A stretch of DNA of 63,132 nucleotides, the filler included, from Globobulimina sp. (Eukaryota): the NCBI GenBank assembly GCA_003354225.1. It is 28 parts of 28 records of this genome, joined end to end, with 100 filler letters (N's around TTAATTAATTAA, not from the genome) between each part and the next. Parts side by side here need not be neighbours in the genome. Positions count along the whole stretch, not along the records: positions 56,462 to 58,618 come from PIVH01008563.1; 27 more parts are not named here. One strand, 5' to 3'. Position 1 is the stretch's first letter, and the number at the start of each line of letters is the position of its first letter. Shown piece by piece: positions 33,789 to 58,618 of this stretch. The translations under genes were made by a program, and so were the position numbers. The notes under the pieces were generated by a model, which was not told the origin of the DNA, made no database searches, and worked only from the letters and a program-made list of their open reading frames with translations.

Positions 33789-33888
33789 NNNNNNNNNNNN
33801 NNNNNNNNNNNNNNNNNNNNNNNNNNNNNNNNTTAATTAATTAANNNNNNNNNNNNNNNNNNNNNNNNNNNNNNNNNNNNNNNNNNNN

Positions 33889-34802
33889 ACATATACGTTG
33901 TCAGCACCATTTATAATTGCATCGTGCAATATTTTTATTGGCTTTATTATGAATTCAGAAAATGCTCTCAATAATGTCCCAGTTTTATTCATTTTGACCC
34001 ATCTTAAACTTGCTCCATCCCAATAATTATTGCCCCATAGTTTTGTCATTAACTTTGAAACTCGTAATCCAAATTTGGAGGAATACATTTCAGCAAACGT
34101 TTGTAATGTAAATGCCCATTGATATAAACCTGAACCAAAACCAACATTTCCACATTTTGGTGTTATTCCATGATTACTGACAAATATTCGTTTGTGCAAT
34201 GAATAAAGCACATTAATTCTGTCAATTGAGCTGTTCAAAATGTTATACGTTTGCTGATATGTTAGCTGTAATTCCAAAAACATTTTATCTAATTTGTCCA
34301 TAAATAGTATAGGTACTATATCTTGCGACACTGCACATTGCAGTAACTTTTCGGTTTGCAAACTTAAGCTAAAACTTTGAATGGAATCAACAACAATGAC
34401 AGCACCGTCTGACAAAACAAATGAAGAGGTTGCTTCTGCAGAAAATGAAGAATGTCCCGGCGTATCAATTACATTGAATAAATACGAATGTTTTATTTGT
34501 TTATCATCTTTGTTTGTTGGTTGATAATATAACGAAATGTAGCTGGCTTTAATGCTCATTTTTTGTTCTTGCTGCGCGTGGTCTTTTGTTAAATACACAA
34601 ATCTGGTTTTCCATTCATTTTGGGATAGGATACCACATTTAACCAACAATGAATCTAATAGTGTGGAACAGCCATGTTTGAAGTCTGATATAAACACAAC
34701 ATTTCGAATATTTGTTGGTTTTTTCATCGCTGACACTATATCCTGAATTACAAAGCGTGAGCGAACTTTGCGGTGTGTTTCAGTCTTTGCATTGTGTGCC
34801 AT
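33889..34802 (-). CDS. Divergent eEF2-like G-domain protein with degenerate GTPase motifs, 3'-partial
   Basis: MKKPTNIRN, YLFNVIDTPGHSSFSAE, DGAVIVVD, GNVGFGSGLYQWAFTLQTFAEMYSSKFG...KLWGNNY are collinear with eEF2; P-loop reads SDFKHGCS and G4 reads DKLD. Confidence 0.85.
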
Positions 34803-56050: not shown

Positions 56051-56543
56051 TATGTAGGACCAAATAGTTCTTTAAGCATTTAAAAAAAACATTGCTAGCT
56101 TCATCCATGTCATTCATGTCATCATGGCACTTGGGCAAAGCTTTGCCGTGCTAAATTAAGGGAGAATTGTAAAATAATGGCAGCCAACAAACAAAAGGTA
56201 TTTTTATAACATTTTTAGCGTTTAACATTTATTAATATTTAGCCCGACATTACTATCCAAAACGCAACCAACTATTTAAGAAAATGGCGGATAAAACAGA
56301 CGGGTTTGAATAGCAATAAACATAAATATTTTGCGTGCACTGCCATCGAGTTCTATGGCCTNNNNNNNNNNNNNNNNNNNNNNNNNNNNNNNNNNNNNNN
56401 NNNNNTTAATTAATTAANNNNNNNNNNNNNNNNNNNNNNNNNNNNNNNNNNNNNNNNNNNNTGACCAAACACTGATATCCACTCAAAAGAATGGATAAAA
56501 ATATTGTATTGTATTCTATTTCTATTATGCAATATCTTAATTC

Positions 56544-56641
56544 GGGGTTGATAATAAGAGGGAGTACCGAGAGAGGCCGGAAACGGAGCAGCGAAAATCC
56601 CCTTTCTTATCAAATCTTCTATACACATATCTTTTTTTTTT
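56544..56641 (+). ncRNA. SRP RNA S-domain (helix 8) hairpin followed by T10; 5' boundary uncertain
   Basis: AGGCCG-GAAA-CGGAGCAG (56574-56591) matches the SRP54-binding helix 8 motif; TTGATAATAAGAGGG pairs with CCCTTTCTTATCAA; T10 at 56632-56641. Confidence 0.75.
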
Positions 56642-57131
56642 AAATATATTTCACCATCGTGAACTACTGATTGATTATTATAATTTTATGCATATTGTCA
56701 GCGGCCAGTACTTGTTGCTTTATTTCAATTTCTCAAATAGGTATATACAATAACCGCAGTCATACCATTTGATGATTTGCTTTCTGTTCAGCCATGAATT
56801 TATCAAAATCTTCGTTTGTTTGTTTATTTAGTGCTCTCTGTGTTGCAGAACATTTTTGGAAATTGTCTGATTGTTGTCCCATTTTTAAAGCGATTTTCTA
56901 AACAGACTCAGGACAAAAATTATGGAAGAATTAAAAAAACTGTTGGATTTATCGATTGCTACGAGCCACATTTCGGTTTCCAACTCTCGTGATGAATTCA
57001 ATTAATATGTGCTGTAACTACATAATTTTCTAAAGTTGTCATTGTTTTTATGAAAACTTAATTTTTGTGACAAGTTGACTGAGTCATCATGTTTCTAACA
57101 TTATCACAACAAACAAGTAATATATAAACAA

Positions 57132-58618
57132 ATGACGGCATATAATGCACATATAGACAAATATTATAGAAATGGTGCATTTAATAACAGGACCTATGAA
57201 TTCTCCCAACAGCAACAGGAACGTTATAATGTTAACAATGGACATCACATGAATAACCCCAAAAACATGAATAATATGCACATCAACAATGGCAATAATA
57301 ATCATAATCATACTACCAACAATAATGAGGAAATAAAAAGTGATATTAATATGCCGGTATCATTTAGCGATCATATTATTTATTGTTTTGATAGAAAATT
57401 TAGTAATTATTATATTGAATGCAACTCATTTGAGCAACAATTAAAAAATAAATATCCATTTAATATACGCAGCATTGCAAAAGAAGAGTGTTGTAAATAT
57501 AGATTTTTACGTAAAAAAAACGATAGGTTTTATTACCTTCAAATAGAGGTACAATTATATATAGATATGTAGTGCGAGGATAATATAATATAAATGTGCA
57601 AGGATCGACATACAAACACAAACAAACACAAACACACAAAAAACACAGCCAGACGATATTTGTCCATTTGGCACAGAATGTAAATGGATACAATGTGCAC
57701 GTATTCATTATATATCAAACGAAGACATTTGTGATGATAGCTATGATAATATCGGATGTGGCGATAACATGTGTTTCAAGATTCACATCGGTGATGGACA
57801 ACGTTTAAGCGACCGCATTTGTAGTTTATTGTATGACTCTTATCAACGTCGTGATATTATTGATGAATCACTAAAATTTAATGAATACAAAGTCTCCTTA
57901 TTACAGTTTATGCGCGCATATGAGAACAAATACGGTGAATTCATTGGTTACAACAGTAATAATGCCAGCGACGGCATGATGAGTGAATTAAAGCGTGTAT
58001 TGCTGTCATATGGCAGTTATTATACCTATGATCATAATGAGCGAGGAATTATGCGTAAATATAGGTTATGGCGTTTAATATCCAACGCAGATTACATCCA
58101 ATTTGATAGCATTGGCATGTGGAAAAAAATCTGTTTCAACCATATGGACAATCATTGCAAGTTCAATCCATCCTATTTATGCCCATGGTTGCATCCGGAC
58201 AAATTATTAGTGTGTCTATTGTCGAAATGCCCCAATCATCATAATGGTACTGGTGGGTGCAATATATTTCATATACAACGCAAATTCACGCAATACACCA
58301 TCAAACAGGTTTATTATCCACTGTTGAAATCTAGCAAATCCATCAAATATGAATTGCATCAAATATATCACTCGCCAGCTACGAATATGAATATTAATTC
58401 GAGCAAAAGCACCGCAAATACTGCCGCTGCCACCGCCTCTTCTCTGGTCGCAGCGAGTAAGCACAACAACACACAGAATAACAGCAACAATGTGAATGTC
58501 TCGCAATGTCCACGCGATTTCTTACATTTTGCAGATCAATTAATTGATTGTTTTGGTCGCGATTTTAATGAAACAAATTGGATGTCATTTGACGAAATTG
58601 GAAAGAAATTAAAATTGC
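57132..58618 (+). CDS. CCCH zinc-finger protein with possible LOTUS/OST-HTH-like segments; intron ends at about 57676; 3'-partial
   Basis: CKWIQCARIH, C...C...CFKIH, ICFNHMDNHCKFNPSYLCPWLH; VSLLQFMRAYENKYG. Confidence 0.6.

Follow-up and report, generated by a model that had tools for sequence, protein, structure and literature searches.

A eukaryotic-type SRP RNA helix 8 in a short hairpin without recognisable helix 6 or Alu domain: a possible mini SRP RNA in the assembly of Globobulimina sp.

Can a eukaryote carry an SRP RNA of the size and shape of the small bacterial form? This question is raised by a hairpin of about 70 nt in the assembly of Globobulimina sp., located in a window of 63,132 bases, which is the whole stretch of DNA analysed here. 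In a preliminary description of this DNA the hairpin was regarded as similar to bacterial 4.5S RNA and was proposed to be a strongly reduced eukaryotic SRP RNA, lacking helix 6 and possibly the Alu domain. Helix 6 is the site of SRP19 and bears a GNAR loop, and binding of SRP19 is held to be necessary before the binding of SRP54 in eukaryotes. Together with the adenosine clamp that joins helices 6 and 8, helix 6 and SRP19 are considered universal in the SRP of archaea and eukaryotes.

The window consists of 28 chained contigs and is not one molecule. It contains 60,432 bases other than N, and the joints of the contigs are marked by 27 runs of N around TTAATTAATTAA, spaced 2257-2260 bases apart. 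Features on either side of a joint are therefore not on the same molecule, even where they appear linked, and evidence from elsewhere in the window represents sister contigs of the same assembly, not DNA linked to the hairpin. The chained contigs are nearly equal in size (2156-2160 bases) and are arranged in falling order of size. The contig bearing the hairpin begins at position 56462, 82 nt from the hairpin, so the figure of about 80 bp of upstream sequence given in the preliminary description was correct.

The same contig contains a gene of a CCCH zinc-finger protein. The frame of its second exon is open from position 57649 on, and the first Met is found only 40 codons in; the spacings C-x5-C-x4-C-x3-H and C-x8-C-x4-C-x3-H in its translation are located before this Met. 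The first exon joins the CCCH frame in phase, and a phase-0 GT-AG intron at 57549-57648 is the simplest reading of the nucleotide sequence. The intron-containing gene previously noted on this contig thus appears to be real, judging from the in-phase frames, the GT...AG boundaries and the lack of an early Met. A CA-rich low-complexity run (57610-57646) is present in the intron directly before its AG. The protein Atlas gave a weak lead (score 0.83) to clusters of CCCH proteins of the PARP12/ZAP type, all of them eukaryotic, and no match at E<=0.01 was obtained with Pfam for the region 57769-58617. The spliced CCCH gene and the eukaryotic Atlas clusters indicate that the contig 56462-58618 is eukaryotic and nuclear in style.

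Sister contigs encode an actin-fold protein, an SMG1-like PI3K-related kinase, an ABCC transporter, a protein with the formin FH2 domain, a GPS-motif protein and an EF2-like GTPase, as assigned by Pfam, and these proteins are plainly eukaryotic. The closest database proteins to the proteins of the window show 77%, 67% and 45% identity, and the named database proteins, with about 35-42% identity, are spread over fungi, animals, choanoflagellates and protists. The EF2-like GTPase is represented by a fragment (33837-34802, minus strand) with about 40% identity to ordinary EF2 and 67% identity to one EukProt protein; it is probably a divergent paralogue of EF2, not EF2 itself. The G+C content of the window is about 30%, and the host is an AT-rich, intron-poor eukaryote, whose gene set, with the SMG1-like kinase, the formin and the GPS-motif protein, does not give the picture of an extremely reduced parasite. 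No SRP proteins were found by the Pfam scan of the translations of the 28 largest ORFs (27 of at least 220 aa and one of 146 aa), no tRNA was called by ARAGORN in the window, and the scan for bacterial promoters and terminators returned nothing relevant.

The motif, the closing arms and the run of ten T (T10) named in the preliminary description are all located where they had been placed, with the 18-mer AGGCCGGAAACGGAGCAG at 56574-56591, TTGATAATAAGAGGG at 56548-56562 and CCCTTTCTTATCAA at 56600-13. Even when up to 3 mismatches are tolerated, the window contains a single occurrence of the 18-mer (0.01 occurrences expected). RNAfold folds the region 56548-56613 as one hairpin, as had been claimed, and an AU-rich helix of 13 bp abuts helix 8, so that direct closure of helix 8 is also borne out. 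For the region 56544-56613 the MFE is -17.6 kcal/mol and the centroid structure coincides with the MFE structure; the same hairpin was obtained in folds of 98 nt and 179 nt. Its tip is represented by the stem-loop CCG-GAAA-CGG, and the closing flanks are UUGAUAA.UAAG.. and ..CUU..UUAUCAA. The coordinates of the features are given in Table 1.

Table 1. Features of the contig bearing the hairpin, in positions of the window.
Feature	Position	Strand	Basis or remark
Contig bearing the hairpin	56462..58618	.	One of 28 contigs of about 2.15 kb
A/T-rich stretch with TATA-like words, possible upstream promoter (weak)	56496..56528	+	Sequence only
Whole hairpin, about 70 nt: GGGG start, AU-rich closing helix, helix 8 tip	56544..56613	+	RNAfold
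Closing helix, 5' arm, in the position of helix 5	56548..56559	+	Pairs with 56602-56613
SRP RNA helix 8 homologue, 42 nt	56560..56601	+	Metazoa_SRP match; aligned without gaps to helix 8 of two canonical SRP RNAs
24-nt apex and 3' strand, the same as in canonical SRP RNAs of the eukaryote type	56574..56597	+	Metagenome matches
Closing helix, 3' arm	56602..56613	+	RNAfold, flank duplex
A/U/C tail, 18 nt, predicted unpaired, from hairpin to T run	56614..56631	+	RNAfold
T10 run, putative Pol III terminator	56632..56641	+	Sequence; terminator role from established knowledge
Exon 1, N-rich, ATG-started, stops before GT	57132..57548	+	Sequence
Putative intron, 100 nt, GT-AG, phase 0	57549..57648	+	Sequence; AG at 57647-48
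Exon 2, CCCH zinc-finger protein, runs off the contig	57649..58618	+	Translation

The 16-nt flanks of helix 8 form 13 pairs with an energy of -6.9 kcal/mol. Flanks with at least 13 pairs were found in 134 of 58,378 random placements in the window (0.23%), a count in which the 'anchored' filter removed 0 placements and so added no stringency, while a flank duplex of equal stability (-6.9 kcal/mol) was found in 3,092 of 38,930 random placements (7.9%). The fold is no more stable than that of shuffled sequences (z = -0.21, -0.60 and -0.91, of which -0.60 belongs to the 179-nt fold), and by energy the hairpin hardly goes beyond chance.

The T10 run reported to follow the hairpin was found 18 nt past its end, at 56632-41; the 18-nt unpaired tail ahead of it is atypical for SRP RNAs. 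T runs terminate Pol III. In the 60,432 bases, runs of at least 10 T are present 3 times and runs of at least 8 T 19 times, and a T run at most 40 nt downstream on the right strand is an event of 0.2-1%. A G+C content of 50-60% is confined to an island of about 60 nt (56543-56602); the preceding 60 nt (56483-56542) and the following 40 nt are spacer-like, with 15-20% G+C. The pair count, the T10 run and the G+C island make the element resemble a delimited unit, not a stray motif. TATA-like words are present upstream, namely TAAAAATA at 56496-503 and TATTAT at 56523-28; such words are common in a spacer of 15-20% G+C, and the region 56496-56528 is a weak candidate for an upstream promoter. No copies of the 5' arm besides its own site were found in the 63 kb, and the reading of the element as a repeat or MITE was rejected, since the 5' arm and the 18-mer each occur once in the 63 kb window.

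The search against the Rfam SRP models that the preliminary description had suggested recovered helix 8 at a permissive setting and below the gathering threshold. Permissive cmscan of the region 56463-56800 (338 nt) aligned positions 177-218 of 299 of Metazoa_SRP (RF00017) with 22.3 bits and an E-value of 5.2e-4, far short of the gathering score of 70; the remaining models of the SRP clan gave less than 22.3 bits. At gathering thresholds Rfam gave 0 matches in the window, and 0 matches were also obtained when the whole window was searched permissively at E<=1, helix 8 surfacing only when 338 nt were searched.

The helix 8 homologue is composed of the base helix GGGA/UCCC, the asymmetric loop GUAC / AAAA, a weak inter-loop stem, the symmetric loop GAGG / AGCA, the stem CCG/CGG and the GAAA tetraloop. 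Its apex, GAGG-CCG-GAAA-CGG-AGCA, a loop of the GNRA type on a 3-bp stem, is present at 56573-56590. The symmetric loop carries A.C and G.G pairs, which are described in a published study as universally conserved contacts of SRP54 (PMC4605306).

Exact matches to the 24-mer of the apex and 3' strand were found by a scan of JGI metagenome contigs in two contigs, L001 and L002. L002 encodes a full-length SRP RNA (113.5 bits on Metazoa_SRP), and L001, with 43% G+C, an S domain (56.6 bits on Plant_SRP, positions 113-234); helix 6 is present in both. The helix 8 sequences of the window, L001 and L002 were aligned without gaps, and 28 of the 30 pair cells are standard on the canonical pairing. The base helix of the window copy has standard pairs at all four positions, three of which are compensatory across the three sequences; when the partner strand is slid by 1-3 columns, pairing falls to 17-37% in the three sequences. 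The GUAC 5' strand of the window copy is found at the same spacing, with the 4-bp base helix in register. Homology to helix 8 of the eukaryotic type is taken as established.

The inter-loop stem of this helix 8 is broken: one of its three pairs is standard in the window copy versus all three in L001 and L002, and the two mispairs are the sole unpaired cells among the 30. In the RNAfold structure its place is taken by a 2-bp stem, C-G/G-C, in shifted register, and the loop is enlarged. The broken stem is compatible with a relic and with a derived functional RNA alike. The changes are confined to six positions of the 5' strand, and the next 24 positions are identical to those of both comparators; such uneven conservation suggests selection on the protein-contact strand, and the ancestry of the comparators could also account for it. 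The flanks of the hairpin are unalignable to the comparators yet complementary to each other.

The 18-mer was found 84 times in prokaryotic genomes (596 Gb). According to the flank pattern, 26 of these occurrences are in 4.5S context and 58 are not, the context being called by a regular expression and one of the 58, L065, being a truncated SRP-like case. In seven genomes of Micromonospora (L006, L011, L053, L058, L071, L077 and L083) the 18-mer is present in a conserved non-4.5S context, with GTACCGT in front and NNGTTCCGCTGTGG behind. In viral contigs of IMG/VR (L087-L100), all 14 occurrences share one conserved coding context, so the motif recurs in coding DNA unrelated to SRP. In the window the 18-mer is followed by CGAAAA, a continuation found in 0 of the 84 prokaryotic and 0 of the 14 viral occurrences, and a relaxed pattern of the eukaryote type gave 0 matches in viral contigs. 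On this comparison the 18-mer alone is not diagnostic and its longer context is.

In the window copy no helix 6 was found, and the cmscan match begins at model position 177, the base of helix 8. With cmscan set identically, helix 6 and the strands of helix 5 are aligned in L001 and L002, so that the absence of helix 6 is not a matter of sensitivity. The 5' closing arm abuts helix 8, and about 50 columns of helix 5 and helix 6 are left unmatched by MAFFT; since the AU-rich helix closes helix 8 directly, helix 6 could not be accommodated. Neither the Alu domain (helices 2-4, UGUNR) nor a long helix 5 nor the 5e motif was aligned in the 97 nt upstream of helix 8 or in the 30 nt between helix 8 and the T10 run. 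With this run beginning 30 nt past helix 8, space is lacking both for the Alu domain and for the strand that a long helix 5 would need on its 3' side. The earlier proposal of a reduced eukaryotic SRP RNA thus holds for the absence of helix 6 and the Alu domain from the visible sequence, while the broken inter-loop stem speaks against function.

Compared with the S domain of eukaryotic 7SL RNA (Rfam clan CL00003), the hairpin is similar in the GAAA tetraloop, the symmetric loop xAGG/AGCA, the A-rich long strand of the asymmetric loop, the base helix in register and the 3' T run. Unlike 7SL RNA, it has no helix 6, Alu domain or 5e/5f motifs, has only about 30 nt 3' of helix 8 and a broken inter-loop stem, and its 22.3 bits stand against a gathering score of 70. 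With bacterial 4.5S RNA (ffs, RF00169) it shares a helix-5-like stem that directly closes helix 8, the size class of 70-100 nt, and an apex of 17-18 nt that is the same as in examples from Planctomycetota, Rickettsiales and Mollicutes; in contrast to 4.5S RNA, the apex is flanked by strands of eukaryotic type and the host contig is eukaryotic. All 15 bacterial controls with the same apex, including Mollicute MAGs of 27-30% G+C, scored 46.7-61.9 bits on RF00169 over positions 1-97 of 97 (gathering score 40). The comparison with bacterial 4.5S RNA made in the preliminary description therefore stands for topology, but the element fails against the RF00169 family model. When a custom covariance model was derived from the 4.5S genes of these 15 controls, its match to the hairpin was limited to the 17-nt apex; with only 7 consensus pairs in its MAFFT/RNAalifold alignment, this model is a poor test of the stem. 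Identity with bacterial 4.5S RNA was rejected on the failed match to the family model, the eukaryotic-type 3' strand and the spliced gene on the contig.

The reading favoured here, held tentatively and somewhat short of probable, is that of a transcribed mini SRP RNA that binds SRP54. It would be a small separate RNA gene of the eukaryote, extending for about 95 nt from about position 56540 to the T run, the sole recognisable part of which would be the eukaryotic-type helix 8, closed by a short helix in the position of helix 5. Its topology would be that of bacterial 4.5S RNA, without helix 6 (the SRP19 site), the Alu domain and a recognisable 5e/5f region. [quoted passage not shown] Transcription by Pol III, binding of SRP54 and function are what we infer for the hairpin from these features. 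It is unlikely that the organism has no SRP RNA other than this hairpin of about 70-95 nt, this case taking about half of the weight given to the mini SRP RNA.

An ordinary SRP RNA of about 300 nt may be encoded elsewhere, the hairpin being a relic or supernumerary fragment, that is, a rearranged, decaying or non-essential copy of helix 8. This is possible, though on the doubtful side. It agrees with two of the three inter-loop pairs being broken in the window copy only, with a score well under any family threshold, with a fold no more stable than shuffles and with an organism that appears gene-rich, not reduced. It also agrees with published surveys, which report that every archaeal and eukaryotic SRP RNA has retained helix 6 together with the adenosine clamp that ties it to helix 8, and which call helix 6 universal in eukaryotes (PMC2905702, PMC4605306); because helix 6 is described as conserved throughout, the prior for a functional eukaryotic SRP RNA without it is low. 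A fragment should, however, retain the contiguous 3' strand of helix 6 and the 3' strand of helix 5 with the 5e motif, whereas neither flank aligns to any SRP model, yet the flanks pair with each other; moreover, the 24 protein-contact positions are unchanged, the base helix is kept through compensatory changes, and a T10 run lies closely downstream. Neutral decay alone would not leave just the protein-contact part of a pseudogene untouched. Quite improbable is the location of the hairpin within a larger, highly diverged SRP RNA, the 5' portion of which would be found in the AT-rich 82 nt upstream, past the end of the contig or in a separate piece. The beginning of the contig only 82 nt ahead of the hairpin leaves room for this, AU-rich hairpins are predicted at 56476-97 (with an AAAA loop) and 56501-35, and MAFFT sets the 5' arm opposite the junction of helix 6 and helix 8 of the comparators. 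On the other hand, the upstream region 56483-56542 is spacer-like with 15-20% G+C, the z value of the 179-nt fold is -0.6, and permissive cmscan stops at model position 177 here, although it aligns helix 6 in the comparators. With the T10 run only 30 nt past helix 8, a distant 5' domain would find no 3' strand as pairing partner. The upstream hairpins are not enclosed by the closing helix, as the topology of helix 6 would demand, and show no GNAR loop.

Chance resemblance and contamination together carry a very slight probability. A chance or non-SRP sequence, hardly credible taken by itself, could be suspected from the 58 of 84 prokaryotic 18-mers outside 4.5S context, the 14 of 14 viral ones in coding context and the loss of the match in the whole-window search, but 0 of these 98 occurrences continue with CGAAAA, whereas both contigs with the 24-mer encode SRP RNAs. 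The GUAC strand is at the same spacing and the 4-bp base helix is in register. Translation of the 18-mer would require a frame that lacks a start and has a stop just upstream (56538-40), and the motif is G+C-rich in a genome of 30% G+C. Still less credible is a bacterial or organellar 4.5S RNA (ffs) of a contaminant or endosymbiont. The single hairpin, the AT-rich context and the T run are as in the Mollicute loci L019, L041, L043 and L045, but 15 of 15 bacterial loci with the same apex match RF00169 from end to end and the window does not, the custom 15-locus model matches the 17-nt apex only, the 3' strand is of the eukaryotic type, and a spliced CCCH zinc-finger gene is present on the contig.

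If the mini SRP RNA were the only SRP RNA of this organism, the eukaryotic SRP would have collapsed to a 4.5S-like core of helix 8 and a short helix 5 with SRP54 alone; helix 6 with SRP19, the Alu domain with SRP9/14 and the SRP68/72 platform would all be lost, a reduction exceeding that of microsporidia in an otherwise gene-rich-looking lineage. A functional hairpin could thus represent a eukaryote whose SRP works with the bacterial minimum, with a bearing on how both elongation arrest and SRP assembly may be dispensed with, or else an extra small RNA of a kind that mimics the SRP54 site in eukaryotes, possibly as a regulator or decoy. A relic would be an ordinary by-product of gene decay.

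In the full-text literature searched, no eukaryotic SRP RNA without helix 6 was found. Among known systems, the microsporidia Encephalitozoon and Nosema are similar in having a eukaryotic SRP RNA without the canonical Alu domain and its binding proteins (PMC5499648). The SRP RNA of Encephalitozoon falls short of those of yeast and human by only about 60 nt (PMC5499648), and no mention of a loss of its helix 6 was found there, while the candidate described here would be about one third of normal length. In the comparator L001 (20-260, minus strand), the contig ends 19 nt past the match and ARAGORN calls no tRNA; a B-box-like word, GGTTCGATTCC, is present at about 171-181, about 35 nt upstream of the SRP match, and L001 may represent an Alu-poor SRP RNA beside a tRNA-like promoter element.
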